DNA of 64,000 nt from Schmidtea polychroa (lineage: Eukaryota): positions 37,262,001 through 37,326,000 of the forward strand of contig CM097888.1 in assembly GCA_044892525.1 (NCBI GenBank), in the 5' to 3' direction. The notes below the pieces were generated by a model, which saw only the letters and a program-made list of their open reading frames with translations, did not search any database and was not told the origin of the DNA. Below, piece by piece: positions 2,041 to 58,300 of the stretch. The position numbers and the translations under genes are program-made. The stretch's first letter is position 1, and every line of letters begins with the position of its first letter.

Positions 2041-2113
2041 GTATTTAAGAAGTAAAGTAAATGTGGTTAATAAAGTGTTTTTGAAAGCTAAATCATTGTA
2101 TTTTAAATAGAAT

Positions 2114-2632: not shown

Positions 2633-4165
2633 GCCTACAAGGAAAAGGAAAATTCTCGATCATCGTCGTTAATGGTCGTTCAGAAATACTAATGAAACCA
2701 AATAACACCACAAAATTACATAGGTGGTTTCGATTGTACCCGAAAAAGGATTATGAGTATCTTAGTAAGTCGCCATATCGTCATCACGTAAGGTCACTAT
2801 CACTACGGTCGGTTTCCTGCAAAACATTCCCGTACTCCAACAATCGGTCTGGAATTGAACTTTTATTCGGGATTATTGAGGGAAAATTACGACTCCTCAT
2901 CTGGTAGCACCCGTACCCAAAGTACCAGCGTTCGTTAAAAATGTTTCATCGACTATTCATCTTCCCTTTTGCTTTATCATCTCAATCATACTCATCCAGA
3001 AATCGTACTGAGGGTAACGAGATATATCATCATTCAGTAGTATAATATAACTTCCCCTTGACGACGGAGTAAAGGAGGGGTTGGGTGGGATTTGATCTTG
3101 ACAAATCGACAAAATCGACAACAAATAATAATTAATTTAATTATTTAGAATTTAAATTTCGTAATACTGTGGTGACTTTTCGTTGCGACACGAAAAAATG
3201 CTTATATTGCTATATTGTTGATTATATTGATATTCAGATTCACTGCAAAGTTCTTAAGTACGGTTAGTAATACTGACACGATACAGTTAGTGTTATTGGC
3301 GATTGAGTACATTCTATGGATCGTTAATTGTGTGACAGAAATACTAACAGCAACAGTGAAAACTAGGTCAATAATGGAATTTCTAATGTTTAGAATAAAT
3401 CTAGTTACAATAATAGGGATGATAGTTGCTAGGCCGGTGTTAACAATGATAATAAATGAAATAGTCCAATTAATAAGGAGGTTAACCGTTAATAATTAAA
3501 ATTGGAATAACCGAACCGTAATATTTCTAACAATGCTAACGCCAATGATTAGGTTAAAATCGATTATTATGACAACAAGCAGAATATCAACAATTAATAC
3601 ATGTAGTGGTATGGGTCATCCATGATTCCCACTCGGGACAGGCAGTTATCTACCGGCATTCATTTTCGTCTTTTTGTTACGGTAATGACTGAGGTCGTTG
3701 TTGCACTATAACGCTGACGAATTCTTGTCTGCAGTTGTCAATTTTCTCTTTATCTGACTGAATGTGTTTGCATGCCTCATATCCGGACAAGATAATGATT
3801 TCTATTTTTTAATTATTTTTGTTTTTCTTTTATTATTTATTTCGGTTTTTTCTAGTGGGTTTTCTTTGGTTTATTGTTATGTTGCTTAGATTCGGTTGGG
3901 GTTACCTTACTTATTTATTTTATTTTTATGTGGTTTCCTCTTTCATACCGGATTCAACTCCATCGAAATTTATCCCTTTGAAATTTAGCCGAACAGATTG
4001 ATACTACCTACATATCTCCGATAGGGAGTCGGAGCATTTGTGAGCCGGGTAATACATGATGTTGGTTACTTAGAGTAAATATTTATGAACTCAGTCTAAT
4101 CCCATAAGCTTCCTTCGCGATTTACGATTTGTCTCCAATATGTGTACCCAAGACGTCGTATCATG

Positions 4166-4308
4166 TTGGTGACGCGCACGCAGGTTGGAACTTACAAGCA
4201 GGTAAGCCCTAGTGTTAGGACTACTCGCTGTAAGATTCACGATACGGGTTCCTGATTGCCGATGGAATGACTTACATATCTTTCACTTTACTACATCCCT
4301 GATCCAAG
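4166..4308 (-). other. Conserved non-coding block downstream of family F (copy 2)
   Basis: Minus strand CTTGGATCAGG...GTAAGTC...GGCAATCAGGAACCCG...GAGTAGTCCTAA...GGGCTTACCTGC...TTCCAACC...CACCAA matches 17058-17191 and 39985-40131. Confidence 0.85.
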
Positions 4309-4560
4309 GAGATGAGGTTCATGCTAAGCTTATCTACCATGAGAGTTGGATCATATCCGAGTTACACCTTCGTAATTGAGCGTACTGATGAACGAGGAAA
4401 ATGATAAGAACCCAAATTTTTTTATTATATCCGTATTACAACACATACTAAATTCACGAAATCAAGAAGTTAAATCCATTCAGTTATCTAAAAAGTTCGG
4501 TTCCATTTATCAATATAGACAGACAAACCACAAGATTGTTATTAGGGTACTATCGTGACT

Positions 4561-5336
4561 TTAGTTGACCTCCATATCTCCTTCGGTCAGCAGGGCATCT
4601 ATATCCACCTGCAGCCAACGATCTTCCTGGTGAGTCGATGCTACGGATGAGATGATTCGAAAGGTATTGAGTCGTGCGATTGATTGAGGATTGGTATTTG
4701 TCTTGGCAATATCCGAGTGGGCAGCGAACAATGAAGTCTCTAGTGCTTCCATCTCCTTTCGTCGTTTTAAAGTTCTCTCAACCCTCGATGGGCCTTCCAC
4801 TTCTTTGGATTCGGACTCGTTGACTTCCCGGAATGGCTTGGAGGAACGGTAGGAAACGATTAACGGAAAGTAGATTCGGAAGTGACGCCATCATTTTTTA
4901 CCCCTTTCAGAATGGGTTCTACGATAGGGGAAAGTTCCGGACCATGCCCTGCACAGCTTGATGACGCTGGGGCATTCAACTCGTCCGCTTGATGATGTTA
5001 GGGGAAAACGTTAAGTCCGTCCTTGATCGGGAATTCCCTGACTCTTCTCAGTATCTCTGATTCGGAGTATACGTGATGCAGGGTATCTGACTGGGCCTTG
5101 ATGGTCAATCGCTGGCAACGGCTTTCCTCCAGGAGACTGTCTCGGGAGTGCACCAGTCGCAAAACGTTCATTTTTTTTTCCTTCATTTGTTGCGGGGAGA
5201 ACCACGTATGTTCTAAAATTTCAATTCGCTTTTTGAAAGCCCCGATGTAGTCTTGTAGTTTTCGGTTGTCCGCGTTCTTGTCGGCACACGAAAAACAAGG
5301 TTTCGGGCTGTGTGGAGGCAAATTAGGCTCGGACAT
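4561..5336 (-). pseudogene. Family F copy 2 (full length; 2 stops and a frameshift)
   Basis: MSEPNLPPHSPKPCFSCADKN...; ORFs 4998-5360 and 4561-4800 match the N- and C-terminal parts of ORF 38970, ending LQVDIDALLTEGD. Confidence 0.9.
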
Positions 5337-8300
5337 GACAGAAAATGTTTTAAAACACAATTTATCAATCGTAAATGAAAACTTTCCTCAATACTACCAG
5401 ACTCATTCGTCGTTCACCTTGATTAGTCAGTCACGAAATCAATATCATCCTAACTCAAATATCAATATTCATATCACGTGCGTACAAAAACGAGGTCTGT
5501 CGTACATATTGAATTCATTACGGGTAGGATTCGATCAAATTATTAATAGGTTCATTTTTTAATGGTTCAATCTTAAATATTTAAATAATATCGAGGGGAG
5601 ATTTTAAGCCAAAATACTTCATGCTAACGATACTAGAATACTGGGTCTAAAATAATTTCTAGCAAACTTTGAGATTCGATGAAATATAGTATTCTAAAAT
5701 TTAAATAAAAATGTTACTAGTAAGAATATTAGCCCTATGTTTAAATTAAGTTTCGGGTTTGTGATACAGAAATTAGTATTATGTATTTCGTCATTATTAT
5801 GGTAGTTTAGGTTTTCATATTTACTTAGTGGTTGAAATGTTTAATTAATTGACGTTTTGTTTATTCTTTCATGGCAATGTTATAAATAATGTCTAAGACT
5901 TGCAAATCCGTTGCCCCACATTTTAGGGTTATCGTGTTTACGTTGACGTTAACAGAATCTGTTTTAGTTCATCCAGTTGGTAGTTTTATGTGTATACGAT
6001 CGTGATTATTTGGAAAATATTTAGTGTATACAATTCAGGAATTGATTTAAATGATTTTCGGAATGTTTACATGCGATTTCTACTTCACGTCACAATATTG
6101 TCTTTAGCGTGATGAGAGAAACTCGATCCATTGAGGTTACGTTTATATGTGATAATATGTCCGGATGTGGTCTGCCGAAAAGTTGATGTTGACTATGCGT
6201 TTAAAAATTTAATGAATTAGCAATTCTAGAGCTTTCAAGTTTTAGTGAATTTTTATTATTGGTACATCTTAACGGAAAAGCCGTGGATAGATTTACGTGA
6301 AAATGAAGACACTGAAGCCTTGGGAGTACCGAAACGACGAAATATCGGATTTATCAGTGATGTTGCCGGAGTTACAAAAATTAATTTAGATGATTCCTGT
6401 GTAAACTTGTTGAAGTTTCCAGTAGTCTTCCTGTCTTATAAGATTTCCGGATCGCTTTTCCATAGTGGCTTTAGAAGTTCCTGAATAGTTTTCGCTCTAA
6501 GTTTTAGAAGTTTGCTATGAGAATTAATGAGAAAATTTTTTTAGTTCTTAAATTTATAAAATTTAACCTGTCGAAAATTTTTTAGAAGTTTAGGGAATAA
6601 GCCAAGTGTCCGCCTTATATAGAATTTTTCGTCCAATCAGGACTTAGTTAGGGTGTATTTTTAATATTTTTCTTATGTCTTGTGCTTTTAACAGTTTTTC
6701 TTAAACTATTTAATCGTTTTAATTTGATTAATTTATCAAGTACTTTATTTTAAATGTTTTTCCTTATTTTTGTTCATTTCTATTGGAGATTCTGTTTGTA
6801 TTTCGTTATTTTTACTTTTATCTTTGTTTTTATTTATGGTTTTATGATAAATTTTTATTTTCTTGTTTGCATTTTTATTGTATTTGTATTTTGTATTTTA
6901 CTTTACAGAATTATTTTCTTCAGCTTGTTCGTTATGGTTGTGTATTTTTGTGATTTAATTGCTACTCTTCATGTTTTTGATGCTCTGATTTTAATTATTT
7001 TTTTATTCTGTTATTTTCTCCTTTTTTATTATTTATTTTTCTCACACTTGACTGATCCACTCCCTTTTTATTATACAGGATTTATTTTTAACTAAGATAT
7101 TTTAATGACCTGTCAAGATGATTTATTATTTTATTATTAACTTTCGTAACTCCCAGCCCAACAATGAGAACCCGATAGCATTTTCAAACCACCAGCAAGT
7201 AGAATGAATCGATAAAGAGAGAAAGTTCACCCGTTGAGACAAATGATCGCGTGTGACATTAGCTAGCTACTTAAGCTGATTTTCATTCTCATTTGAAGTT
7301 GCTACAAATGCAGTTGGCCTTATCGAAATTTTGGCGATATAAATGACATCAGTGCGCTGAGTTAGCAGATTAGAGTTGACTACTATCTAGACAAGCCAGA
7401 TAGTTCACGTTATCGTTCCATGTTAAAATCTATATCACTAATCATCGATGAACCTAAGATTGACGTTGTCTATGAGTATTCGCCTAAAGATTGGCATAAA
7501 TTATTAGAATTACGGCTAGTCGAAGCCACTATACTCATTTTATGTATTGATAAGAATTAGACTCGAAAACCTTAATTGCGTAATCACAGAATTTCGATAA
7601 AAATTAATGGTGCGCCTTCATTAACGTTGGCTTTTGAATTAGATTCCAAAAATAATTTTTGTGTGCGAAAAAATTTAAGTGAATAGAAGATAAAGTTCGA
7701 TTTCATTTTTTTTATAAAACCCATTCGTAGAATATTTGAAAGTAATAGATTGAATAATTATTCCTTGAGTTACGTAATTTTAAAAAACATTAAGAACATT
7801 TAATTTTGTCATTGATTATGGTTTGGAATATGGGAACCCACGAGTAACAGAAACAATGTGCAATTATAATTAGAGTATTTTGGAATAATTAGGTATGATA
7901 AACCGACTTTGTAATTTCACTACTTCGTCACTACAGAATGCCCCAAGTAAGGCCACTACGATTGGCATTTTTATCTTCTATCAAGGATAACAATCTTAGG
8001 TTAAATAAATAAATTAATGTTAATAATTCAACTATCGTTTTTGTTGTTATCTTTAACGGGCCTACGAGCTAACGTCATCGGCACTGATTGGAAAGAGAAT
8101 GCGAGGGATTTCTATGACCTCCATAAGCTTTTTGCCGGAACCTCCCAATCAACCTTGTTATAATAAGCGTGGAACTCGAACTGTCGATACACAATGAACG
8201 GGACTTCTGTAAAATTTTCTTCTCGTAAACCTGTTGTATTGTAGAGACCCATGAGGGTGCACCTATGTATTGCTTGTTTATTTATGCTATAATATCTATT

Positions 8301-8391
8301 CTCAAATAAATATTTTGTGTTACGTAAAGTTGTGATTTTGTTTCTAAGTTCCCGTAATAGAGTTGAATAAGGCAAGAGTGTTGTGTGGATT

Positions 8392-8934
8392 GTGGGAAAA
8401 ACAAACCTGTTAAAACATGAGATTGTTCTCACCAATACAAAACCTATAAAGTTGAAACCGTACCGCATTCCATTTAGTCTGAAGGAATCGGTAGACAAAC
8501 AGGTGAAACTGATGCTAAAACATGGGATAATCAGACATAGTAAATCACCATATCAATCACCAATGATAGTGGTGGCCAAGAAAGATGGATCAGTGCGATT
8601 GTGCAATGATTATCGCATGGTAGACGAGGCAACATGCAAGGATAGCCATCCATTGCCATTTCTAGATTATATTTATGGGCGCATGAGTAACGCTAAGTTT
8701 TTCTCATTAATGGACGCCTAAAAAGGATTTTATCAAATTAAGTTAAAAGATGAGACTATACCAATAACAGCATTTTCTACAAGCATGGGTCATTACGAAT
8801 ATAATGTAATGCCTTTAGGACTCACGGGAGCTCCAGCCAGATTTCAACGAGCAATGAATTTCAAAAGCAAAGGCAATAGAGAAACCGGTGAAAAAACATC
8901 ACCGAAGAAGCACAAGGACACCGATAGCCGTTGA
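8392..8934 (+). pseudogene. pol: Ty3/gypsy reverse transcriptase N-terminal fragment with internal deletion
   Basis: [70 protein letters not shown]. Homology stops near 8860, before the YxDD motif. Confidence 0.92.
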
Positions 8935-8966
8935 GATCACGTGGTGTTCCAAGATCAGTCACTCTT

Positions 8967-16034: not shown

Positions 16035-17324
16035 AGTCGAATGAATGCCGAATGTCAGTTATTTTTACCAGTATGATGGAGCTGTTTTTCTGAAGAGTTT
16101 TCCTTAGTTTTATAGAAAATGTCTGAACCAAATCTGCCAGTAACCGGCCTGAGACCGTAGTTCTCGTGCACGGATAAAAATTCGTTATTGAGGAAATCAG
16201 ACGATTATATCAGAACGTTGAAGAGAAAAATCGACACGTTGAAAGGCACCTGGTTCAATCCAGCGGCCATGAAAGAAGCCCAGACGAAAACTCTCAGGCT
16301 CGAGCACTGCCGTGACAGTTTGCTCGAGGAAAGCCGAAGTCAACGGCTTACGATTAAAGCTTAGTCGGCGGCTCTACACCGCATCTATTCCGACGCAGAG
16401 CTCAAGGCCAGAGTAGTTGAGTACCCCTCTGCATCATCGAACCGATCACGTGGGCCCATCCCACTCTTCACCTTGCCACTCTCATGGACCCACCGTAACA
16501 TCATCTGATCGTCCAGACATCTTAATGTCGGAAATTTACAAGTCCGCGACATCTAATATACCTCCAGAACTTACTTGGGTTCCCCGAGGAGACGTCCAAG
16601 CTGATCCCCCTACAGCAAAGAAGAAGCGGCTGACTCGCGCCGAGAAAACTAAAAAACGAAACGAAGAGCTCGCGGCAACTTCGGTTCAGTCGGTCATTCC
16701 GAAAGACGCGAATTCTGCAGTAAGAATCGTGCCAGCTACAATTTCTCAGACAGCTTCTGACCTGGCATTGGAAACCGACATCGCGGCTATGCTGTTGGAA
16801 GGAGATTGGTAACGGGCGGAGATCGTCAGCTAGCTTTATGTATCGGTACATTCGGCACTTCATGATAGTGGTAGACTCATTGAGCACAATAAAACTGTAT
16901 CTGTGTATAAAGTAGTCGTTTGCTGATTTTTGTAATTTCTACGCATGCTCGGCGAATAAATGTATTGCGAACGATGGGTTGTTGATTTATTAAATTTGCC
17001 TTATCTTATTGTTAAGACTCTGATGCGCTTGAGTAAACGGGAATGAGAAAAACCTCACTTGGACCAGACGGTTTGGGGAAAGCGTAAGTCCTTCTACGGC
17101 AGTCAGGAACCCGTACCGCGAATACTGGGGGAGTAGTCCTAACGCACGGGCTCATCTGCCCGCAGGTTCCGACCTCGGTGCACATCACCAAAATGGTTTA
17201 GTGTCATGTGTGCATCGGAGGGAATATCATTACCATCATCTTGGGTAACTAGGAAAATCGAGCTAGTCAAAATTCCACCAGTAGTCGTCCCATTCGTCAA
17301 CTATCCAACCCCAGGTACCCAACA
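16035..17324 (+). mobile_element. 5'-truncated giant LTR-like unit (3' end at 17324)
   Basis: Contains F copy 3, AATAAA near 16955 and conserved block 17058-17191; ends ACCCAACA at a distance from the block similar to the two TSD-bounded units. Left junction at the G11 run 16024-16034. Confidence 0.7.
16119..16812 (+). pseudogene. Family F copy 3 (stops and a frameshift)
   Basis: MSEPNLPVTGLRP*FSCTDKN...RLEHCRDSLLEESRSQRLTIKA*S...; C-terminus KKKRLTRAEKTKKR...RIVPA...ETDIAAMLLEGDW; acceptor TTTTATAG 3 nt before the ATG. Confidence 0.9.
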
Positions 17325-24819: not shown

Positions 24820-25084
24820 TTAAAAATATTCCAAATGTACATTATTTAAACACAGAATATCAAACAAAGAAAGGATTTTATATATAACTTTAATTTTTCA
24901 TTAATTAATTAATTAATAATGATTTGGTTTGCTTTAGTATTTTTAACGCGTGTGGTGTTTTTTATTTATTATTAGTTATGTAAAGTTGTTTGTTTTAATA
25001 ATATTCGTTTTAGCGTGTTTTTGAAAAACATATTTTAATTGCATTTATTGATTTTATGAATTTAGAAGTTCAAGACATCATAAC

Positions 25085-25095
25085 TGGCGACCACG
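25085..25095 (+). promoter_or_regulatory. Primer-binding site, probably tRNA-Arg
   Basis: TGGCGACCACG is complementary to a tRNA 3' end CGUGGUC-G-CCA, consistent with Arg(UCG) acceptor stems beginning GACCACG; shares its T with the LTR end. Confidence 0.65.
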
Positions 25096-25101
25096 ATTGA
25101 C

Positions 25102-27420
25102 ATGCTTTGGGACTCTGGAGCGTCAGTATCAGTTATGAGTGAAAAAAGTTGGACAAAGATCGGGAAACCGAGGTTAAAGCAGAGCACAATTTCTTTTTGT
25201 GGAGTATTTTCGACGGGAATGGAAAGACCGTTAGGAGAAATGACGATAGAAGCTGATTGGAATGGGAAAAAAAGAATTATTAATGTTATAGTTGTCAAAG
25301 ATATGCGTCCAGATTTCATTGGGGGTGTAGATACAATGGAGAGATTTGGTATTCGACTGGTAGAGGTGGACAATATTGAAGCGTCACAAGTAGGGAGGAC
25401 ATATGTGGACTCACAACGAGAAGAGAAAGCATTATTAATGCTTGGAGACAGGAAGAATGAACAGTTAGACATATTTCTACGGAAGTTCAAAGGTATTTTT
25501 ATGGCTTCAACCTTTGATCTCGGGTTTACGAAAGTTGTTCAACTTGAAATGAATATAGTAGGTGGGCCTGTAATGTTACAGCCAAGAAGACAACCAATGC
25601 ATTTAGAACAAAAGCTTGACGAACTTGTCACAAACTTATTAGAAGCGAGAGTTATTAGAAAATGCAAAAGTGCATGGAACGCACCACTAGTGATTGTGGC
25701 TAAGAAAGATGGATCAATAAGGATGTGTGTCGACTATATAGGGTTGAATGCGATCACGGAAAAGATATCTTTTCCAATGCCAGATACACGATTTCTACTG
25801 GATTGTCTGGCAGATTCAAAATATTTCACATCCATCGATCTAGGTCAAGCATATTATCAAGTTGGAATGGCGAAGGAAATTCAAGAGGTCACGGCTTTCA
25901 GTACAAGGGAAGGACAGTTTTGTTTTAACCGACTTCCTTTTGGACTAGCAACCGCCCCTGCGACGTTTCAAAGAATGAAGCACTCAATGTTGGATGGAAT
26001 ATTATTTAAGGGTGTTGTTGTCTACCTCGATGACATTCTTGTCTATGGAAAAGACAAAGAGGAACACAATAACAGATTAGAGGAAGTATTCAGAAGAATT
26101 CAACTAGCGGGGTTGAGAATTAACCCAGAAAAATGTAATCTGTATAAAGAAGAATTGACATTCCTAGGGCACACTGTAAGTGCAAGTGGGATAAAAACGA
26201 ACGACAAGAAGATTAAAGAGATTCAAGATGCAGAAATACCAGTATGCGCCAAACAATTAAGATCCTTTTTAGGTATGACCAATTACTATAGGAAGTTTAT
26301 AAAAAAAGAGAAAAAAGATGACTTGAATAAAAAAAAATTTCCTTTCAATTTGTATAACAACATAAAATTAGAAGATGGGTTTTTATTATTAGAGAAGAAT
26401 GGTAAAGATGTCATCCTGCTGCCGATAGACTAGTCAAATACGTTAGTTAAAGGAATACATACTGAAATGTGTCACATTGGAGTAAAGAAATTAATTAGCT
26501 ATATGAGCAACATATTTTTTTGGCCAAACATGCAAGAAACTATACAAAACTGTTTGATAGTATGTGAGATATGCTACAGAAGGAAGATAGTGCAGGAGAA
26601 GACAAAGGAACGATTGTTGCCGATAATAAGTTCAGAATTTTTAGAACAGTTGGTCATTGATATAGCACACATGAAGAATGGTGGAGTGTACAAGTATATG
26701 CTAGTTATCATTGATCGTTTTAGCAAAATGGTCAGTCTGACCGCACTGGAGAGACAAGACGAGAGATCGATTTTCAAAGCCATATTGGAGAAGTGGATAT
26801 ACCGTTTCGGAAAACCGCGAAATTGTCTGTCAGACAGAGGGAAGAACTTCGATAGTGGTTTTATGAAAACAAATCTAGGAAGACTGGGTATTAGGCAACA
26901 GTTCAGTTCACCATATCAGCATCAATCTAACGGTTTAGTTGAGAGAACAATACGGACAGTCAGAGACTTGCTGGCAACATCATTAGCAGGTGGACTAGGA
27001 GAGCGAAATTGGGTGGAGTTACTTCCTCGAGTAGAATTTTGTATCAACGTGACACAACAGAGCGCGACGGGATTTTCTCCATTTGAAATTGTTTTTGGGA
27101 GGAAGATTAACCTTCATTCAACATTGCCTCAGACGACATTGGATACAGTTGAGATACATAGATTGGTAAGAGAGAACAGTGAGAAAGCAGCTAAACGAAT
27201 GAAAGAGATGGAAACAGAGAAGAGAACGAATCGATGTTTCACGATGGGGGAGAAAGTATTAGTTCGGAAAGAACCACAAAATCGCGACAAAGATGGACTA
27301 CAGTATGAAGGTCCGTTTGTCATATCAAAGTTTTTGTCAGAACACCAGGTGGAATTGAGTGACGGGACGACAAAGAAACTCAGACGAATTGAGTGGCTTA
27401 AGAGATGGGCAGTTCCTTAA
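25102..27420 (+). pseudogene. pol: pol: protease (N-truncated), RT, [RNase H missing], integrase; one in-frame stop at 26431
   Basis: LWDSGA; KKDGSIRMCVDY; LPFGL; YLDD; FLGH; LRSFLGMTNYYRKFI; integrase H-H...C-C (IHTEMCHIG, CEIC) and DIAH / SDRG / VERTI. ORFs 25102 and 26467 are in the same frame. Confidence 0.95.
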
Positions 27421-27703
27421 AGAAGGGGAGAGTTATGTAAAGTTTTTTGTTTTAATAATATTCGTTTTAGCGTGTTTTTGAAAAACATATTTTAATTGCA
27501 TTTATTGATTTTATGAATTTAGAAGTTGAAGACATCATAACTTTATTAAATTCATTATTTTCATTTTATTGCATATGTTCAATATGTTGGAGAAACTTTT
27601 AAAATTAAAAAATAATCGTTTTGCTAATCCATTCATAGAAATACAACCTTCAATAATATGTTTAAGATAATTTACACCCTTTTGACGAGAATGACATACA
27701 ATT

Positions 27704-33900: not shown

Positions 33901-36900
33901 TCGATAAAGATGTCAACTAAATCTCTCTCGAATTCGAAGAATAGTTCTACAAAAGCCATTAATGAGGATAAAAGTTATGAAAATAGAAGTCCATCTGAAT
34001 TAGAAAGTGGAGATCAGTTAAATTTGTTAACAGTGCCCCAACTTGTTCGTCGAGATGCGTCAGCTTCTTTTGGAGATTTAAGTTCTTTAGACGAATATAA
34101 TATCAATGAAATCAAGTCAAAAATAATGCAAAACAATGAGTTCGCATCAGAAATCACCATTAAAAACCATACTAGGAGTGCTGACCTCAGTGGGAAAAAT
34201 GTTTCCAACACAAACAATTTTGATTTGCTGCCCAGATCAGAATCTTCGTGTAACTAAATCAGAAGAAATTGCTTTTCTATTTTCATGAATATTTTTTTGC
34301 CTTTCTTGATTTTGTACATTAAAATTGTATTAAGTTTATGGTATTTTTAAGTACAATAAAATTTACCAGCTATTAAAACAAAATTTTCAGAAATGAAGCA
34401 GTGATTTGCTTTACCCTTACAAGTTGGAATTTTTCTCCTAGCAAAGGTGCCGTAGAAATACAAACAATAAATCAATATCATATCAAAAATAAGAAAATAT
34501 GTTACGAAGCCTTTTACTAACGGGTGAGTTTAGGTTTTCTATTAGTCTCAAATAGTAGATTATAAACTTCATTTTTAATTACTAAATCTTTAGAAGTTAT
34601 TGTTTGAGTAAGAAGTGTCATGAGTAACGGATGTATTAGGTCATTTTGAAAGTAATGTAGTTTTGTAAAGGGTCTATTTTAATTCTTCAGAAATATGGTT
34701 AATGATAAAGTATACGAATTACTTTAAGATTTAAAACCTAACATTTTCTTTGGAAATGAAGTCACACAAAGGACATATTGTAAAGAAAATTAAAATAAAG
34801 AAACATCGAGATAAGCCTCACAGACTTATAAAATCTTTTGAATAAAAATTTAAATAATGAACATTTGGAAACAAAAAAGACAGATAAACGGTGCACCGCG
34901 AACCCATTTGAATACGTGTCCATTAAAGTGCACGAGATGTCACTTACTTTAGACGAGTGTTCTCCGACGGAATACAATACCAATGTTAAGCATTCAACAG
35001 TATTGCGCGGTTGATAAAAGCTGTGTCCTTAGTTGCGCTGGAAACAGCACGAGAGGGTAACTCCCTCCATTGAATTTATCATGAACAAATATTTGTCGAC
35101 GTCAAGTGCCTAAAAAACAAAAAACACCATTTTCCTGTATTTTATTTACTCTAAATGTAATACTATGACATCTGTCTGTACTTTGTAATCTGTACTCTCA
35201 GTACACACTCATTCGTACACACTTGAAATGATTGACCATAATATTAATAAATATTTTTCAACTCTAACCTAGTCCCCACTCCTTCACAAATTCCTAGCTA
35301 CGCCACTGAGCAAATGATGTTTTATTTGACATAGTGGCCTGTGGCCCATGGCTATGTTCTATATTACGCAAATGATACGCATGGTTTCAGTTTCAGTAAT
35401 TATGGTTAGTAAATACAACAGTTTTTAATTCCATCATTAAAAAAACTCAAAACTTTATTTAGCTTATTTTTGAATATTGATACCGATGTTGATCTAACTA
35501 CTTGTTGATATTCGTTCAATTTATTCTGATGGAGTTCAGATGCTTGAACTTTAAACTGATCGTAGTGTTGCGGTAAAGTTTAGAGTGGAAAAAACTGGAT
35601 CAAATAGAGAAGCGAACCTCGAAAAATAAATGAAATAAAATAAAAAAATAAAATTACCTCAAATCCCAGTAGTAAATAAGGAGAAACAATAAAATACCCG
35701 TAAAAAAAATAAGAATAGGTAACAAATAAATAAAACCCTAAGATTACGAGATAAATCAAGGAGAAACAATTTAAAAACACACCATGAATAAAATAGAAAT
35801 AGTATAAGCAAAAAAGGTGAGAAAATAAACGAGAAATTAAAGCAATAAATAAAAATAAAACTACTTTTAGGACTAATTAAAACAAAAAATTATATTGTTA
35901 TAAAATAGCTATAAACCAGCAGGAAAAATAGGAGAAAAATAGTAAAAATAAGAAAATAAATAAAATAATAATAAGAAATAAGTTAGTTATTAAAAAATCT
36001 AATATAGTATAATAAAAACATAGAAATACCAATAAATAACGAAATTACAAGCTAGTCGCGTCCTGATTGGACGGAAAATAGTATATAAGCAATGGAAAAT
36101 ATCTGTAGAGTACCATTTAACCGCTATACTCTACAGCAACCAATTTTCGGATATTACCTTAGAAGACACTCTACCAACGTTACGAACTTGCGAAAAACTT
36201 TATTACAGCGAACTAGTTCTAGAATTCAAATTCAAACTCTAGGAAGAAATCCATAGTAAATTTAGCGACAAACTTATTCAGGAGAAATTTTAGTTTTCAA
36301 CCAATTTGATCCAGTTTTGAAACCCAAGGTATGTTGAGTCGTTTATGATTCAATTTAGTAAATTTTTGAATGGTTTAATTTTGTATGATTCGATTTTTGT
36401 AAATATAATGATAACTTTCAGAAAATAAATTTATTTAAAAGAAAATAGCTTTCTTCATGGTGCCGGCGACTGTACCATTTGGTAACTTCAAGTATGATGC
36501 GAATGAGAGGAAATAGCCACGAGGGATTTTCATGATATGCATCCAGAAGATGTTGAAAGGACATTGGGTTCTCAGAGAATACGATACTGGGAGAAGAGAG
36601 GCCCGCCAATGCCTGATTACGCGAGTGATTTAATGGAGAGAGACATCATACTTGGAGCCCAAATGATAGGGTCGCCGGGTAAATTATATTTATTCATTAT
36701 TTCGTAAACATATTTTGATCATTATGAATTATATGCAAATTATCATTTTATTGAATGCGAAGGAGTTGATTGGTCCCTCATGACGGTGCAAGAATGGCGG
36801 CAGCAATGAATGCCTTCTTGGGTGTGTCATGAGGGGTGATGAGACTCTGTAGATTGAGAAGTCGAATTTCCTTCACCGAACGCGATTGTTCGTAGAATAC

Positions 36901-39900
36901 TCCATTGTTATATTTGGTCGCATCAAAATTTCCAATAGCTGCGGAGACGATTTAGAATTCGAAAAAGAGACAATTCGTATTTGAGACTCATGTTTACGTT
37001 AGTGCTGATTAGGGAAAATCTACATAGATAGAGGAATACTTTCTTGATCATCAGCTTGTCGATCAGAGTGATTTGGAATAGGACCTTGTCGATCACAACG
37101 CACGAATAAATCCAATGAATTTCTGCAATATACTGCCTTTTGAAACGTCATCCGATTTAGATCGCCAGAGCATTAGCGCCAAAATCCATTTACGATGTAC
37201 TTTTAGTCTACAATATTGACTTTCGAGTGGCTGATAAGCACCGTCTTCTGAAAATTAAAGTAAATAACCAATGAGAAATTATCAGAAATCTTACGATAGA
37301 GATGAGAGAAATTACTGACAGAATTATCGGTTAAGCTTGTATTGACTGGAGGAATCACTGTGAGGGTTATCTGCTAATTGACAAATGAATTGCAGTCAGA
37401 TTATAACCAACATAATTTGACGATCGACGAAACCAGATAGAGTTGATAACCGGTTAACTTCCAAAATGATTTGTTTAAGCGGCGCGGGGGTAGACGTTGT
37501 CTTGAGTTGGCCGTTTGATAAGCGAATTAGATTATGATTCCCAGCTCATTTCACCATTTACCGAATTGCCACACGCGATCTAAGGCAGATGCTCATACAT
37601 CTACACCTAACCGCGAAATATAACATTATCTATAATCTAAAAAAAAAATCAATAAATATATATTATAGGAACACACAAACTTACCTGTGTGTAGAAATTT
37701 AATGCCGCGAAATTTATCAATATTATAAATGCTGACTAACAGTAATATTTAAGAACTTGAATAATGATCTCATAATTATATAAAATCAAAATTCAAGTCC
37801 TAAAAATTACTTCAATGCAAAAACTTACCTTTAAACGATTTTTGGAAAATTGAATAAATGAAATTAAGTTAACATTGTCATATAATTGGTGACTCACCTC
37901 AGGTGGTGTGCACACCAACTTATATTATAGACAATGTTAACTTTCGCGGTTAGGTGTAGTATCAATTCACATCGACCGTGTGGTACACGCATACCTTCGC
38001 ACACTCTCCTTACAGTAGGATACACCAAACACCACTGAGATGCATTTCCTATAATATAACAAAAAAATCAATAATCTTACATTATAGAAACATACATACT
38101 TACTTTGATTTCACGTTGATGTTCTCATTTATAGCTCAACGTATCTCAGTGGTGTTTGGTGTAGCAAAATACTTTAAATAGTAGAGTTTTCGACGACGTC
38201 ATAATTACATAATAGTCTACGATTCACGATTTCATGAGATAGTAGGATGGTGTGTATAAGTAGTAGGACAGATCGCTTTATTAACGACGTAATACGACAT
38301 CGGACTGTATAGCCTATTAGGGAGAACGACAACACATGCAGACACAAGCCTACACTAATCTAACCGAACATACCAACTCGCTTAAGGCAAATTGAATATA
38401 ACACAAGCACACGAGTGGGCGTCGTCATGACGACGAGTGCAGCGCGTTTTATAAAAATTCATAATTTAATTTCTAAAGCATTATTATATATTATATATAA
38501 TATATAATATAATATGATTCGAATATTTTTCAACCTGCATTGCAATTAACATCGTACAAATAATTATAAATTACACTAAATTTCGACCACCAGACATGCA
38601 CAACTCAACAAAACCACAATACTAGGCATTAGCGCTTTAATTGATTTTCGGAACATAACAACGTTAGCAGATAATCAAAAAGAGTAATAATGGAGAGGAC
38701 TGTCTAACCTGAAAGTAAATGTTGATTTTTAGGTCGAGTAAATTGAATTTAATATTTCCCCGTTTTCTTTTCTAAATTATTATTAGTAGATAATTTGATT
38801 TGAACGTTTAGTAACGGAATGAATGTGAAGTGCTGAGATATAGGAAAGAGTGGTTTGAGGGTTGCATAAAGTGGTATGATGAATGAGATCGTTAAGCCTG
38901 GGGGTTAAATCGTAAATGATACGCAAATGAGTGTTGCGACTGCTTCTGAATATATTAATAAATTTCTAGATGACTACACCATCCAACAAGGCTAAAGAAC
39001 TCGGCCCGTGTTTTTCTTGTGCCGACAAGAACGCGGATATCGCTCAACTTCACATATATATCGGGGCTCTAAAGAAGCGCATAAACCTTCATGAAGGCAC
39101 GTGGTTCTCGCCGCCACAAATGAAGGAGGAAAGGACTAAGATCCTCAGATTAGAGCACTGTAGAAACAGCCTGCTGGAAGAGAGCCGCTGTCAAAGGCTC
39201 ACAATAAAGGCACAGTCAGAAGCCCTCCATAAGGTCTATACGGAGGCAGAACTAGCCAAGCGAGTGCGCGAATTTCCCGTCGTGGATGGAACAAACGTGT
39301 TCCCTCTCCACCATCAGTCGTCTACATCGTCTACCACAAGTTGTCAAGGGCACGGCTCCCATCGGCCGCCCACCCCAGCCCCAGTACTGTCGGGATATTT
39401 ACCCATGAAAGGTGGCCTGTCTGACCCAATTCTGGCCCCAATTCTCGTGGCACCTTCTGTCACCACGGCGGTAGGAGAAAATCCGCCATCCCGCAAACGC
39501 AAGCATCCAACTAGGGCCGAGAAGAATAGAAAACGCCGGAATGCAATGAAGGCACGCGAAACGTCATTATCAGCGGCACACTTGAAAATTAAGGAAATAT
39601 CAACAACTCACTCAATCCCCTCAAAAGAAGTTTTCCGCATTGTTCCAGCCAGCGGTATCAAATTCATATCCGACTGCCGATTACCTGTTGACATCGACGA
39701 GATGATCGCCGAAGGGGACAACTTCGTCTAGACCGGATTCCTATTGAGCTCGATGTTTGCTTCGAGCCGTAAATGAACTTGAAGACTTTGTCGAATGTCG
39801 TATCCTACTGGTTCATATGCTGTTGATCTAATAATTGGGATGATGTATTGTTTTATTTTTGTTTCAGTGTCAATACATTTTTCTGTTTGGTTATTATTTT

Positions 39901-42718
39901 GTAAAGTCTTCAAATATTTGGTTTTGCGAATTAGAGTAAATGAATTAGGGCGGAAGAATGAAGGAATTAGGCCAACGGTCGTCCTTTGGACCAGGATCGA
40001 ACCGAGATTTATGTATGAATGAGGGTAAGTCCTTCTCAGGCACCATGGAACCCGAACCGAACAGGGGTTAGGAGTAGTCCTAAGGCAGGGCTCACCTGCT
40101 AACCTCTTCCGACCCGTGTGGGCAGCACCAACGTGGAACATCGTCACGGGCTCACGCGTGGGAATATTTGTATGATCATTAGGGATATGCAAGGGGAGTG
40201 TCTAAGCGGAACGATAAGGCTTCGTATGTCTGGAAATCGTACGTAACTAATTTTCTTCCCCACCATACACCAACAGTAGTTAAATCAACTTAAGTGTCAG
40301 TAATATTATATTTGAATATATAAAAAATTGAACCCGGATACCTGGGCATTAATAAACAAATTGCTTTATTTTCAAATGAAAAGTTAAAAAGAATCAGTTG
40401 GAGCATTGAACAAGTATATGATTTTATAAGGACATAAATATCTTCAGAGTAGTTCCTGTGTCGATAATTGTTCAGCATTTTTCCTAACACTTTCTACGTT
40501 GTTAATATTGATGAATTTTTTTTCAACTTGGTAATTAATAAAATAATTTTATATACACTTCTCTTATCTAAGAAAGCTTATAATTTAAGTTTATGTTCTT
40601 TATCAAGGTCGGTTCTAGATGTAGGCTACGTAATCTCAAACCCACATCCGCAACAGCAATGAGAATAACAACATATATGGCATGGGATTCAGTAAATAAT
40701 GAAAATTTAAATCTAGATCTAAAAAATGTTAGAGATAAAAGGTATTTTCCGTTCTCTGTTCGAAGAACTGACGAGACTGTTTTTCCAGTATTTACATTGT
40801 TGAGGTTACGCAAATTGGTGTAATTTTCACAAAAAATGATTAAAAATGATTAAAAAATTTTAAATATTATGTAAAAATTTAAAAATTAATATAATTCGCG
40901 AGTTGGGGGTTGGGGGTAGATTTAGAAAAGCTGGTCGGAAATACGTGAAAAAATATAGGTGGCCCTAAATCCCCTTTTTACATCTCATATTGTCGTTTTA
41001 TAATGTACTATCTCATAATTATAAAAAAGACTGCTGCCTATATAGTAAACGACCGAAGGATAATTGACTCTATTTAATTGTTCTACAGAATGATTTAGAT
41101 ATAAGTTATTATAATTAATAATACCAGTTATGAAGCTGAAACTAATGACAGACAGACAAATACAGAGTCCCTACTATCAAATATCAAACTCATCAATGGC
41201 CCTATATATAGGATTGACCAGAAAATATACAACTGTGGAAGGCATAAGTGCGGTTTAACAATAAAATTGCCCATGTTGCAATATTTAAAATAATAATGGT
41301 TTTCAGAGTGGTTCCCAAACGCCAAGGAATTTAGTTACAACTGATGTTTGTACATAAAATTGTTCTTGATAAATTATATGACTTTTACAATTACGATGTT
41401 AAATATATATAATTAGAGGCTATAACATTTCACTGTTCACTCATAATCCCAAAATTTATTTCATTACAGGTCGTAAAAAATATTTTTTAAGACAATTACT
41501 AATTATTTAATATCAACAAAAAAATTTCAAACATTCATCATTCATAAAAACTTTAAACATTTGATTTTTTAATTTAAAAACTAGAATAAAACTTTTACCC
41601 TATATAAATAATAATATAATTTAAAAATAATTTCAAAATAAAAATTTTGTTTTTTAATCCTTTGAACCCTAAACTCCGATAAAATGACCTGATTTAGTGA
41701 CGCATATACCATAATGGCGGGTTACTGGCCTCAATGTATATCCAGATATGTATATGTTAATACTTTTGACTCATTAACACCGTCATCGCGAGATGATAGG
41801 AAGGGCAGAACTTGTTTTAGCATGAACTCCGTGCGAAAGTGTTCCTAGGTTGAGATTGTTGTGTGCAGAGGTGCTAGTAGTTTTATATACATTTTGAAAA
41901 ATTTGCGTGTGAATCTGAAAACTGTTATGATGTGTATCATTCCAAAGTTGAATTCTGGAGATAAATTAATATTTTATTATAAGAACTTTTTTTTCACTTG
42001 AAAAGGGCAGTGCCGAAAATTTGTGAATATCAAAAACATCGACTTATTTATTGATTCATAGTTTTCAAATTTTTAAAAAATTTTTTTTTTTATAAATAGA
42101 TGTTTTTACCTATTATAATTAATTAAAAACTCATTATTCTTATATTAATGTAATTATTATTTTTATAATCAATAACTTTTTTTACTACAGGAAGTTGTGT
42201 AAAATTATTATAAACTAGAAAAAGGTTTCCTGGTTGGAAATTGATTTTTGGTTAAAATTGCAGTTTTAGTCAAATATTATTTTTTGGTCAAAAATTACTT
42301 ATGAGCTCAGGCTTAGCGTACTTGTATAATGAACGCCTCAGGGTTCAAAAGATTGAATTTTCTCCTCACACAACATATATAAAAATTTAATAAAAGCAGT
42401 TTTTAAAATATTATTACTGTCATTAATAAATAATTTTTTTTACGAATTAATTCTCACTGACTTCCAGCTACGACAGGCAGCTTGCGAATTATATATCTGT
42501 TGAAATATGCCAGGTAACCTATAGTAAGAGTAAACAATGATTATGATATTTAGATTATTTGTTCAATGATCTTTTATCCAATGAGCTTTTGTTTCAATAT
42601 TGCTCTTATTCGTGTTACCAGTAAGCCATCAATTATTTATCAACGCTATTCACAATTTCATCTTCCATCAATTCGTTTCATTCAAGGAATAAATATTACA
42701 TCGGAAATCAAGCAAACC
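33901..42718 (+). CDS. Multi-exon host gene of unknown function (exons about 33901-34249, 40608-40741, 42468-42513, 42554-42718; ends undetermined)
   Basis: The last three exons have canonical GT-AG sites and join in one open frame (VGSRCRLRNLK...VRDK|SYDRQLANYISVEICQ|IICSMIFY...EIKQT) with a 40-bp intron. Linkage of the 115-aa ORF at 33910 is inferred and needs an extra small exon. Confidence 0.5.
37604..37956. mobile_element. Tc1/mariner-type MITE (353 bp) inside the solo unit
   Basis: TIR CACCTAACCGCGAAA / TTTCGCGGTTAGGTG extending imperfectly to ~35 bp; TA on both sides. Confidence 0.85.
38023..38161. mobile_element. Tc1/mariner-type MITE (139 bp) inside the solo unit
   Basis: Perfect inverted repeat CACCAAACACCACTGAGAT / ATCTCAGTGGTGTTTGGTG; TA on both sides. 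Confidence 0.85.
38970..39731 (+). CDS. Family F copy 4, intact 253-aa protein of unknown function (coiled coil, Pro/Ser linker, basic NLS-like tract, acidic C-terminal motif)
   Basis: Uninterrupted ORF; three homologues in the window; acceptor TTTCTAG abuts the ATG; RKRKHPTRAEKNRKRR; ends LPVDIDEMIAEGDNFV. Confidence 0.9.
   Translation: MTTPSNKAKELGPCFSCADKNADIAQLHIYIGALKKRINLHEGTWFSPPQMKEERTKILRLEHCRNSLLEESRCQRLTIKAQSEALHKVYTEAELAKRVREFPVVDGTNVFPLHHQSSTSSTTSCQGHGSHRPPTPAPVLSGYLPMKGGLSDPILAPILVAPSVTTAVGENPPSRKRKHPTRAEKNRKRRNAMKARETSLSAAHLKIKEISTTHSIPSKEVFRIVPASGIKFISDCRLPVDIDEMIAEGDNFV
39985..40131 (+). other. Conserved non-coding block downstream of family F (copy 4)
   Basis: TTTGGACCAGG...GTAAGTCCTTCT...GGAACCCG...GGAGTAGTCCTAA...GGGCTCACCTGC...TTCCGACC...CACCAA. 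Confidence 0.85.
41658..42352 (+). mobile_element. Internally deleted piggyBac-like element
   Basis: TIRs TCCTTTGAACCCT / AGGGTTCAAAAGA; TTAA on the left, TTGA on the right; C-terminal Cys-rich remnant FACESENCYDVYHSK. Confidence 0.7.
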
Positions 42719-52916: not shown

Positions 52917-55377
52917 TATAGGTGAACTGTTCTTCACACATTTTGAAAATTTTAATTAAGTGTTTTATTTTTTGTGTTAGAGAAATGTCGTTACAAATGC
53001 AACCTTTGTGACCAAAAGGAACGCCGGTTTACAAATGATTCGTTATATGAGTCGATATATCCTATTTCGGGATGCAAGTTCACGCGACCACTAAATCAAT
53101 TGAAATTTGTGTTTCATAAATCTTGTTATTATTGTTGTCTTTTCGTTTAAATTATATAGAAAATTGGGACGCTTAAATAATTAAATAAGTAAATCTTTGA
53201 AGTTTGATATAAAATTTTAAAAAATTTGTAAAAATTGTTTCGTTATTTTTTTAAACCAACAAATTTCACATTCATTTTGTTTTTTCAAGAAATTTGGCAA
53301 TTTTGCAATGAGGTAGTTATTATTTTTATTGCGAATTTGAAACTTTTAAGGAAAATATTTAAGCTTCATTTAAAACAAAATTATATTCAAAAACTAGGAA
53401 TTGACTTTCATACAAGTTCAGACAAAAATTTTTTAATTTTATTTAATCGATAACCAAAAACAATGAGAAATATATCTGTGGCCTCTGACATTTGATCCAC
53501 AAATAATTGAATTTAGTTATTTCATTAACTTTATTACCAAGAGATATGCTAAAAATCCTTCGTTCACATTCATTTTGTCATAGGAAACAATCAAGAATTT
53601 AACAAATAAAATCTAATTAAATGCGAAATTTTTTTTTTATAATTGGTAACAATTTTATTAACAAATTCTCATAATTATTTAGTCTATTTATATCACTTAT
53701 TAAAATATTTGGAATTATTAAACAGATTTATTTCTTTAAACCTCATTTTAAATTTAATATTCAGTTTTTTTAGCTTTAAAAAGTCATTTGAGACAGAATT
53801 TAAAGATTTCACAAATTTTGTTTCAAATGTTAATATTAAAAATCTGTCTTGATTGTCTTGACACATTGGTGTTCGCTGGTAGTTTTATTTGTTTTAATGA
53901 ACTGAGTGATCTCTACACCTACAATGAAAGCTGAAATACAAATAAAACCCTTACCACACTGATTAAATTAAGGGATGTATTTCATGTAATTTATTTAATA
54001 ACTGCAAAAAAGGATAATTTTTCAGTTAATATTTTCTTGATAAGTTTGATTTAATGAATCAAATTCGTCTATTATATCCATGTAAATGTCTTCAGAGTAA
54101 CTTTCACAAAAGTTTTCGCAATTGTTCCTATTGTTATTATTCTTTAGAAGAAACTTTCATAAAAAATAAAATTGGTTTCACACTTTACATTATAACAAAC
54201 GTTCTTTTAAATCTAACTACTAGCAGTATCAATAAAAATGTAAAATATTCCAGTCCCTCAAATTTATTTGTATAATTTTTATTCATATGCAAAAAATTAA
54301 ATGCTGCCGTCTCCCCCCCCCCCCCCCGACCCCTTTTTAAAATTGACTTTTCTATCCGACACTATTGATCAACTTTTTATGCTTTAATTGAAATCAACTT
54401 TTTTTAAATTATATTAATAAATTTTAAATACCAAAAATAGAATTCATTGTTGTTTATATTTCATTATTGATCGAATTATAAGAACTTTATTTTCCTTTTC
54501 AAATTTTGCCACTTATTTCTTTTCCATTGTATTTATTAAAAAAGCTTGACTATGAATCAATAAATATTTTTTTGATATTCACGAATTTTCGGCATTGGTT
54601 GTAATCATTATGTTTGTGTTGTTTCAGAATTTATTTTATTTAATAATTTTTTATTATTATCTCTACTGGTCATATTTTTAGATATAATAGGATCTACAAT
54701 GGAGTAATTTTTTTTTATCAATAACTATTTATCAAAATTATATTAAATTATCTATTTTAAAATTAACATCAATCTATTTATAATTAAAATATTGTTTAAT
54801 TATTTACAAAGTAAATATAACATTTGTCTAAAAAAACGAAAAAGGCACGTTGCAGAAAAAAGCTCATGATAAAATGCAAGAGATTGGAGATTTTGTGTTC
54901 ACTGATTTTTTAACCAATTCGATCTTTAACTATCGACGAAGACATCATTAATACCGTTTCCAAGCTGATCAGTGCAGAATGATTTTATAAGTGCCAACCT
55001 TAAAAACTGTTATGATAAAAATAAATTATATGAAGACACAATTTATGATTTATCTGGAACCTCAAAAAATCATTTACAAATTGAAATTTTAATTACAAGA
55101 AAGTTAATTTAAACACTATTTTTCATTATTTTTGAAACAAGTACAACCTTTTCTAATGTAAAATTTCAAAATCATCAATCAAAATTCGCTTGACGGACTA
55201 GAAATGTGAAAAGATAATTGAAACTACTCACCGAGACAGTCAAATGAATAATGATACATTTGGTAATCCTGAAAGATGATATGCATCACTGCAATATGTC
55301 ATATAAATATAAAGAAACATTTTTAAAATTTGTACTAAACTACATTTTTAATCTGTTTAAAACCTTAGAGAAAATTC

Positions 55378-58300
55378 ATGCGTGTCTTTATTACATATGA
55401 AAATGATCGGGTTTCGATGGACATACCATTTGGAGAAACAGTTAGAAAAATCAAAGAATTAATAATCAAGAGAATGTCTATTCCACAAAACACCAGTCAC
55501 TTAGGTAATGAAAATCAAATGAGGAAAGTTCTGGTTTTGAATTGTTTTGGAGCAGAATTACCCGATCATTGGATACTGTCTGATTTGAGCATTACTCCTG
55601 GATCTACTTTGAAAGCTTACATGAAAGATGAAATGGATCCAATTTTGTATTTCAAAATTGGCTACAATTCAAACACTATTCCAGTTTTGGAAAAGATGAA
55701 ATTACAAGATTTATCTGTATCAGATCTCAGATCATTAGCATCCAAGTAATCTTTTATTATTTCTAATTATTTATTGTAATTTATCATATAAAATTATTCT
55801 TAAAATAATTTTCCAATAATAATTATTATATATGAAATTTTATATGGCTAATAGTTATTTTCTGGTTATGTTTGAAAACCATATGTAATAATTATTTCAA
55901 TAAAATTTTATTTAAATAATTATGTAAAAATTTCCTGTAATTTGTCAACCTTAGAAAACTTCTCTGTTTTTATGTCACTAATAATTTTTCATTGTTTCGA
56001 TTTTTCTATTATTCATTCTAATACAATCCACATCTGATAAAATGGACTAAAATTTTTGTTATCATGAAATTATATTAATCTGTATTTAATTTTCTTTCAT
56101 ATTCCTGTAGTTTTAAAAATACATTCCTGCCTTTTAATGAATTTTAGGTGTAGATACAAAATATAAGAATATCATCCAAGTACAGGAATACTTCGAACAG
56201 GTTAATCGGTTCTGGAATTTAGCCGTACTATTTGAAACCGGACTATTCGAGGCATTCTGGTGCTAATAACTCTACGGCTTAGTACCCCTATTAAGAAATT
56301 TAAAAATCGTTATTATAATCTAGTAAACAAAAAATATTTTGTTATGTATTTTTATTTTTCTGATATTCAAGAGCAAAACAAGCATATTTAACACAGTTGT
56401 ACATTTAAATATATATTTATTGAAATTTATAAGCCGGCAATACCAATTCATTGCAACTAAATCAAAAAAAAGAATTTATTTCATTTTAAAAATATTAAAA
56501 AAAGCTGATGAAAAACAAGTAAATAAAATTAAATAAACACAACAATTTAATTTAAAAAAGATCAACAAAAGCAATTCACTTAAATTCTAATGTTTAGATT
56601 CATTTTTTATTGTTTAAAAATTTCAATAACGATGTCTGAACTTTTTTTTGTCGTTTCTCCTCATACATTTCTTTGTAGCAATGAATTGCGTTGGCTATTG
56701 TTCGACGAATTGTAATGCGGCGTTCTATATTAGAATCAACTTCCATTATATGATCCGAAACTTTTTCGATCATTTCAATGATTTCTTTGAGCTGTTCAGA
56801 AGTTAAATCTTTAGCAGGGGTTCAACAATTTCATTGTGAAGTTTAATAACGCTAAGCTTCTATTCTAAAGTGAGCCATTTGCGTTTTTTGGTTGTGGAGT
56901 CACTTTTACACTTTGTTCTGCCACTCATTTTATTTTTTAAATTAAAATCTAAATATATAAAAGTCAACATACTCTACGATTAAAAATATAAAACCAACAA
57001 CTTTGATCTATTATCGCACGATCGGGAATGTATCCGTAGTGAATTTTTTTACGGTTTATTTATTTAATTTTTTATTAAAACTACAAACCAGAAATTAAAC
57101 GTAACAAAACAAATTATTAAACACGTGCCGTATGATTTTATAATAACGAATAAATTCTAAAAAATTAATTTAAAAAAACTTTTAAATTTCGAAAATTTTA
57201 TTTAGTCATTTTAAAAACAATCATATTTTGAAAATTTCAAAACCGTACTATAGAGAAACCGTACTGATCGAAACCGTACTTTCACCTAAATACCCAGAAG
57301 ATCTAAAAAAATAACTAAAATTTAGAGCTAATAATCAATTATTTCAATATAATATAAAAAATGTAAATTACAAATTTTTTGAAAATCTTAATTTATAAAA
57401 AAAAATTCATTTTGCTTGTAATGACATTTTTAATTTTTTTAATACTAAATATATTTCTTTTTATTATTGATGTATTTCAAATCCTGCTTTTGAATGTCAT
57501 GAGTGCAATACCACATACATAGGAATGACTATCCCTCATTAATGCGCTCTCAAATCGACCGAGGAAATTGATAAAGTGAGCATAATAAGGAATAAAATAG
57601 AGGTGGTACATGAAAAACATTTGTCTAAAATGATGTTATGTAAGCTTGTAAAAAATCGTTAAACTTAATAAAAATTATTTAGCGATCTTAAAAAAAATTT
57701 TTTAATCAAATATATTTTTTAAAAATTTATGAATTTTTTGGCTTGTGAATTTAAAAATTTTATTTATTTTATTATTATTTTTATTTATCAAATTATTTTA
57801 TTTATTATATTTTATCATGAATCCCTTAACTCATAATATGGACACCCGAAATAAAATTTTTACTAGTGAACCCTTTCAATGCTCCTATGGACACCGTTTG
57901 CTTAAGATCAAAAATTTTCATTTAATTAACACGAACTTTATACCATTTAGTGTATTGACCATAATTCCTAAAAATGGAATGCAAATGACTAATTATATTC
58001 ATAAAGTCGTTTTTGAAAATTATTTAATGATTATTATTTAAAAAAAAGCTTGATCATAAATTGGTCACACTCAGCTGAACACCAACGCCCCAAAAGAACA
58101 CCATAACAACATCAAGTAATTAATTACTTTTCTGTAGCTATTTTTAGGAATCCATACAAAAATTTTAATTTAATTACGAATGGCATTATTAGCTATACAA
58201 ATTTAATTGATTTATTTTCACAACAGAGAATAAAACACTTTATATTTTAGTTACTTTACAAATAATATTATTGTTTTACTAAGTGAAATGGTAAATTTCT

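Follow-up and report, generated by a model that had tools for sequence, protein, structure and literature searches.

A covarying RNA fold at the 3' end of the long terminal repeats of Burro-type retroelements in Schmidtea polychroa, next to a tRNA-Pro primer-binding site

The 64,000-nucleotide stretch of the Schmidtea polychroa genome analysed here (assembly GCA_044892525.1, contig CM097888.1, positions 37,262,001 to 37,326,000, forward strand; hereafter the window, in whose numbering positions are given unless another locus is named) holds three units with a shared open reading frame (ORF), termed ORF F, and a conserved non-coding block near their 3' ends. The units are long terminal repeat (LTR) copies of Burro-type giant gypsy retroelements, a class assigned by size and domain description. 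One is a 4.7 kb solo LTR on the plus strand (35566..40275) that runs from TGTTG to CCAACA, has the 4-bp target duplication GTAG on both sides and shows homology to the two LTRs of a full element elsewhere in the genome; another is a 3.1 kb solo LTR on the minus strand (4060..7163) with the 4-bp target duplication TCAT. An earlier note on this DNA, made from the sequence, had described one order of motifs at three sites, and all three copies were located as described, at 4166-4308 (minus), 17058-17191 and 39985-40131. Its spacing of 215-250 bp between GTAAGT and the CCAACA end also holds, with measured GTAAG distances of 251, 241 and 216 nt. The extent it gave to the block, 39985..40131, captures the core and falls short in size: the conserved structure spans 39981-40162, ~30 nt further 3' than 40131. 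The second copy of the fold lies at 17054..17237 (+), in an LTR that ends at 17324, and the third at 4120..4313 (-), in the 3.1 kb solo LTR; both are defined by sequence and by matches to a model, which finds the three copies at 40017-40177 (+), 17076-17237 (+) and 4120-4283 (-).

The full element possesses LTRs of 3.7 and 4.2 kb, 25.8 kb apart and 99.7-99.8% identical; the block ends both of them, with the primer site directly behind the 5' LTR. Long direct LTRs, an interior of more than 20 kb, TG..CA ends and target duplications (4 bp, at the two window solo LTRs) characterize these elements. Among eight proteins scanned, Pfam identified gag, CCHC knuckles, a Monjiviricetes-type fusion protein, protease, reverse transcriptase (RT), RNase H, integrase, ankyrins and a RING-MATH ORF in the interior, and no family for three further ORFs of the full element or for ORF F. 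The fusion glycoprotein is positioned between gag and pol, the cargo comprises ankyrin and MATH domains, and the polyprotein of this copy is split over two reading frames, the break falling within the fusion-protein region. In the available part of its published account, Burro/GYPSM1 is alike in its 30 kb size, 3.7-4.2 kb LTRs, gag with CCHC, fusion glycoprotein between gag and protease, RT, RNase H and integrase, ankyrins and MATH accessory ORF, and differs in its BIR, BCL2, SUMO-like and dUTPase domains, which Pfam did not report in the full copy here (PMC6431247). That part of the planarian account covers the proteins, and mentions neither RNA structure in the LTR nor primer use (PMC6431247). 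ORF F itself (38970..39731, +) encodes 253 aa with a basic Arg/Lys stretch and starts directly behind a pyrimidine-AG acceptor-like site. The 5' LTR of the full element (L243) lacks 551 bp of ORF F, which the otherwise 99.7-99.8% identical 3' LTR retains; a fourth ORF-F copy in the window, at 2162-2632 (-), breaks off with no block behind it.

Further copies of the block were sought in the 781 Mb assembly of the window's own genome. Three DNA queries yielded the best 40 of 978, 353 and 253 candidates, respectively. The pattern GGAACCCG..GAGTAGTCC matched the genome 120 times, against 0 for the reversed control, and the looser GCTCAC..CAKYWCCAAC 6,825 times, against 11, with an almost constant spacing between its motifs among the 100 matches listed; the copy number of the block is far above chance. 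When 12 families are compared (66 pairs), the block has a mean pairwise identity of 0.65, whereas four windows on its flanks reach 0.50-0.54, which is the level of shuffled sequence (0.49-0.53); conservation of the block thus exceeds that of the neighbouring LTR, a check named beforehand. A motif-blind sample was drawn by the primer motif alone (the first 66 loci listed on one contig, representing 11 sequence types and therefore non-independent). The core of the fold is kept in 65 of these 66 LTR ends anchored on the primer-binding site (PBS), with GCTCAC in 65, CCAAC in 64, TTCTA in 59, GAACCC in 52, GGACC in 52 and GTRAG in 41. The motifs first listed for the block are present and fall short of universal, GTAAGT, GGAACCCG, TTGGACCAG and TTCCrACC being limited to certain lineages. 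Viral contigs contained no match to two patterns; seven metagenome-contig matches to one pattern were set down to chance, the remaining fold being in none of them and the best model E value 0.5. A very divergent copy (L258:8887-9047, +, 35.8 bits) still keeps GCTCAC and CCAAC. Elsewhere (L273:788-2669), three distinct LTR ends of one lineage lie within 2 kb and are likely nested insertions.

The structure of the block was derived from 197 loci with a motif match, grouped into 44 clusters. After exclusion of 11 damaged, chimeric or truncated representatives (L016, L036, L040, L099, L210, L217, L219, L237, L238, L239 and L240), the remaining 33 were joined with two window copies in an unedited MAFFT alignment of 35 sequences. 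The rows were chosen by GCTCAC and CCAA, so the invariance of both is built into this alignment, and the motif-blind 66 provide the fair measure. An all-against-all column scan ranked helix pairs at the top. The resulting six-helix, 32-pair structure is paired in 89.8% of 1,107 cells; 25 of its 32 pairs exhibit double-sided change, several with five or six pair types, and its covariation score of 0.561 compares with 0.219 for shuffled alignments, none of 500 shuffles being as good. Slid control structures are 33-44% paired, and RNAalifold recovered the same P4, P5 and P6 stems from a separate 43-row alignment. The excess of G-U cells (121, sense strand) over A-C cells (33), which would be G-U on the antisense strand, suggests that the fold forms on the sense strand. 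Folding energies of single sequences were no better than those of shuffles on either strand.

The check for covariation proposed in the earlier note has in this way returned a covarying fold, and its view of the block as a cis-acting RNA element stands as far as RNA structure is concerned, by covariation and strand asymmetry. The specific stem that it drew does not: GTAAGTC(C) with GGGCT(Y)AC, thought to hide a splice donor, is 66.8% paired, has double-sided change at none of eight pairs and is equalled by 360 of 500 shuffles. The local partner of GGGCT is AGTCC instead, and one position of this pairing shows five pair types. The cmscan comparison that the note had also named found no Rfam 15 covariance-model match over the block (the window at E<=5; 20 loci at E<=10). 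The element is undescribed in the literature searched; the original Burro paper, its supplements and Repbase lay outside that search and may cover LTR features. The block is a genuine and undescribed, but expected, sort of retroelement leader structure, namely a structured unique 5' region (U5) beside the PBS in a known element family.

Taken along the plus strand of the 40k copy, a modular anatomy emerges. The upstream hairpin P0 (39981..39997, loop TTGGACCA) is lineage-limited and lies outside the counted structure; its stem changes were judged by eye. Domain 1 (40022..40045) is built from helices P1 and P2, which are 79% and 89.5% paired and flank a 4x1 internal loop with GTAAG; this loop reads GTAA in most lineages and is ACAC-like in one, and one lineage keeps the fold without GTAAG. 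Its 7-nt, T-loop-like terminal loop is TTCTA plus 2 nt in most copies and contains TTCTCA in the 40k copy. Downstream, the linker GAACCCG (40048..40054) resembles a retroviral primer activation signal (PAS). Domain 2 (40059..40110) supplies helices 3-4 of the structure: the long covarying stem P4, a 4x6 internal loop and hairpin P5, the base of which is a near-invariant AG(U)/GCU with CAC behind it. Domain 3 (40113..40162) supplies helices 5-6, with stem P6, an unpaired AGYACCAA strand (CCAA at 40128-40131) and hairpin P7; the AGYACCAA strand is unpaired in seven of eight single-sequence folds. Between the fold and the end of the LTR, family-specific stems bring the PBS back near domain 3 in all eight predicted folds.

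Within the LTR, the block is placed in U5 because promoter boxes are found ~500 nt into the LTR and AATAAA is enriched upstream of GCTCAC. The predicted promoter (36060..36136, +) combines a CCAAT box and a TATA box (36082) with a hairpin where transcription probably starts; L252 and two further units of the window share its conserved CCAAT and TATA boxes. A T/GT-rich tract follows the poly(A)-signal variant AATACA (39872..39877, +). The corresponding position holds AATAAA in other families, and AATAAA falls at -260..-175 of GCTCAC in 16 of 43 cluster representatives, against 3.7 expected, three other bins being at expectation. We infer from the predicted start and the upstream signal that the block belongs to U5. 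In L252, the TATA box is directly followed (L252:3750-3830, -) by a hairpin and a donor-like site, together with a segment that directly repeats the one before it.

The distance from GCTCAC to the primer core is 149-211 nt in PBS-adjacent copies. In the host genome, the tRNA-Pro(TGG) genes have a 3' end to which the PBS core is exactly complementary, which makes tRNA-Pro(UGG) the primer, and the block, as for a retroviral PAS, lies upstream of a PBS that matches the 3' end of a host tRNA. These genes occur in tandem arrays with a 475-bp period (L244:1501-2997; C1 130.90-130.95 Mb and 133.14 Mb). The motif is shared between such arrays and the PBS, and 2,679 matches to the PBS core were rejected as a PBS count for that reason; an extended motif has 2,311 matches genome-wide at up to one mismatch. 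A Pol III promoter or tRNA-derived LTR of the Helenus type, as described in the available text of PMC10886601, was discarded, ARAGORN having found no tRNA in 30 LTR-end loci.

Two motifs of the fold are complementary to this primer beyond the PBS. The linker GAACCC(G) complements the 5' strand and loop of the tRNA-Pro T-arm at 7/7 Watson-Crick positions; among 32 representatives, GAACCC is exact in 18, a near match in 5 and missing in 9. The unpaired CCAA of domain 3 complements U33 and the UGG anticodon. In three lineages, the TTGGACCA loop can also pair with the tRNA-Pro D-arm. With search windows taken from retroviral precedent (PMC3185550 and PMC11251516, each in its available part), a rough chance estimate is ~0.6% for the 7-mer against the T-arm over 20 positions, and ~3% for CCAA against U33 and the anticodon over 8 motifs. 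Other short likenesses, GCTCA, which also occurs in the PBS and at the 5' end of the tRNA, and GGGACC against the variable arm, are too short or lineage-limited, as is a pairing of the domain 1 3' strand with the PBS in some minimum-free-energy folds.

Precedent exists for U5 interactions with a primer tRNA. The available portions of PMC3185550 and PMC11251516 describe the PAS and A-rich loop of HIV-1 (human immunodeficiency virus type 1) and U5/T-arm pairing in HIV-2 and avian sarcoma virus; in human T-cell leukaemia virus type 1, the PAS for tRNA-Pro is a prediction. Like those elements, the fold lies upstream of the PBS, with, in most lineages, one motif complementary to the 5' strand of the T-arm and, in addition, an unpaired motif complementary to the anticodon loop. 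Unlike them, it is a larger, multi-helix fold with its motifs 110-250 nt from the PBS, is predicted from sequence, has lost the T-arm match in one lineage, and carries an extra T-loop-like hairpin and GCUCAC loop.

The reading that we favour, at a rough probability of 0.55, is that the fold serves as a U5 replication element of the unspliced genome RNA, either docking the primer tRNA or acting in packaging and reverse transcription. In retroviruses, the 5' end of the genome RNA is the template for U5; selection on the fold would therefore act in the leader, beside the PBS. If transcription starts ~500 nt inside the LTR and the block lies downstream of the poly(A) signal, the block would be U5, and solely genome RNA that has read through the signal would carry it beside the PBS. 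Family-specific stems formed from the block to the end of the LTR would bring the PBS back alongside domain 3. The 3' 18 nt of the tRNA would anneal to the PBS, and the freed T-arm would then pair with GAACCC(G), in the manner of the retroviral primer activation signal. The unpaired CCAA, a proline codon plus A, would pair with U33-U34-G35-G36, much as the A-rich loop of HIV-1 does with tRNA-Lys, and the T-loop-like hairpin and GCUCAC loop would supply tertiary contacts or contacts to Gag or RT. The persistence of the element where ORF F is undetected (2/6 LTR loci) and where GTAAG is absent is in keeping with such a role. Among the options raised in the earlier note, a packaging or priming structure fits best.

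Several observations weigh against this assignment. The covariation tallies count sequences and not events, and the structure was drawn from the same 35 sequences with their relatedness retained; folded on its own, a window copy gains no stability over its shuffles (z 0.05). The transcription start and poly(A) site are predictions. The tRNA matches are short and were spotted after the fact, and one lineage with the same PBS has neither GAACCC at its place (the 9 of 32 above) nor the TTGGACCA hairpin. A search for CCA replaced by another codon or primer returned 61 scattered single-change variants and no family, and tRNA pairing leaves the universal GCUCAC loop and the T-loop-like hairpin unaccounted for.

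The donor-like GTAAG of domain 1 could point to a different role, in which U1 bound at GTAAG, ~110-190 nt past the LTR poly(A) signal and helped by the fold, suppresses 3'-end formation and yields genome-length RNA, the site possibly serving also as a splice donor. A start ~3.7 kb upstream obliges the 5' LTR to read past its own poly(A) signal; 25 of 44 cluster representatives have a donor-like GTRAG, and accessory ORFs begin behind acceptor-like sites. The foamy-virus donor/poly(A) switch, in the available text of PMC3694450, offers a precedent in that the LTR holds a poly(A) signal as well as a donor-like site, within a structured region; here, by contrast, the donor is downstream of the signal and absent from one lineage. 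That lineage retains both the fold and the upstream AATAAA, bases on the exon side of the donor are poor (GAC| in 12 of 25), both LTRs carry the donor with the same downstream context, and the supposed hiding stem does not covary, which together make read-through control unlikely. A structure-regulated major splice donor is not supported, since GTRAG occurs in 41 of 66 motif-blind copies and covariation is lacking in that stem. Contigs of five presumed-RNA runs, set against a young element, showed, among the matches listed, neither a GT..AG joint nor a loose end that begins at GTAAG. A few pass through the block unbroken, and two long joints, 1408-9306 and 5203-8588 (L252), have no splice ends and look like microhomology; these contigs count neither for nor against splicing or cleavage.

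Dependence on a protein partner appears less probable still. A Rev/Rex-type response element would have the basic ORF F protein bind the fold and export or stabilise unspliced RNA. Long stems with purine-rich internal loops suit Rev/Rex-type binding, ORF F with its Arg/Lys-rich stretch lies 250 nt upstream of the fold, and the elements hold several acceptor-led accessory ORFs; yet ORF F is undetected at two of six LTR loci and weak (E 1e-4 to 1e-3) at two more, and the fold is kept at all four. A twister-sister-like self-cleaving ribozyme, which would cut GCUC^AC at the C40093/A40094 bond and for which the T-loop-like hairpin would be the docking partner, is the long shot among these readings. 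At the base of P5, GCUCA faces YAG and forms U-A and C-G pairs, as in loop L1 of both twister-sister (RF02681) and the LINE-1/OR4K15 'lantern' ribozymes, and the nearby 7-nt T-loop-type hairpin shares U..C..A with SL4 (available parts of PMC5660989, PMC11620745 and PMC7373991). Beyond the L1 strand GCUCA paired with (N)AG, the correspondence fades: other bases stand at the equivalents of G5, which contacts the scissile phosphate, and of C6, A33 and G35 (A/U and G/A in columns 66-67, U and W at the loop positions), and the set of G5/C6 (G36/C37) on the opposite L1 strand, SL4 G31, A33 and G35 and a P4 within the junction is not reproduced (PMC5660989, PMC11620745). The extruded G is a U-G pair here, the T-loop hairpin lies outside any junction enclosed by P2, the RF02681 model has no match in the host genome, and constitutive cleavage in U5 would presumably cut the template for U5 copying.

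Returning to primer docking, a bolder version is tentative and on balance doubtful: a T-box-type, RNA-only primer-selection machine in an animal retroelement, in which tRNA capture would gate packaging and reverse transcription. The CCAA bulge would read the tRNA-Pro anticodon as a codon does, GAACCC(G) would unwind the T-arm, and the fold's own T-loop mimic would take over the D-loop contacts of the primer. Few cis-acting RNA structures have been mapped in gypsy-type elements of invertebrates, and thousands of copies in many divergent lineages constitute a natural covariation data set, with which the fold has been fixed and ~20 near-invariant unpaired or wobble positions isolated. Precise in vitro tests are now possible, of anticodon read-out, of T-arm pairing and of cleavage at one named bond. 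If primer docking is true, an enveloped flatworm retroelement would share extended tRNA recognition with vertebrate retroviruses and carry it in more elaborate form.

Other features of the elements and the window were recorded in passing. A conserved 160-161-aa ORF lies 325-712 nt past the PBS, ahead of gag and behind an acceptor-like site, at four loci (L253, L255, L256 and L258). The inverted-repeat region of the 35566-40275 solo LTR contains a match to the mir-753 precursor (37746-37806, -; 61.8 bits against a gathering threshold of 62), which suggests that the planarian mir-753 family may be carried or spread by Burro-type LTRs. A small LTR element unrelated to the block, at 24974-27542, has 112-nt direct repeats (98%) and protease/RT-like and integrase-like ORFs. 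Ubiquitin-like and ankyrin-like frames, judged by eye, mark probable host exons at 55369-55749, 61141-61485 and 63374-64000.

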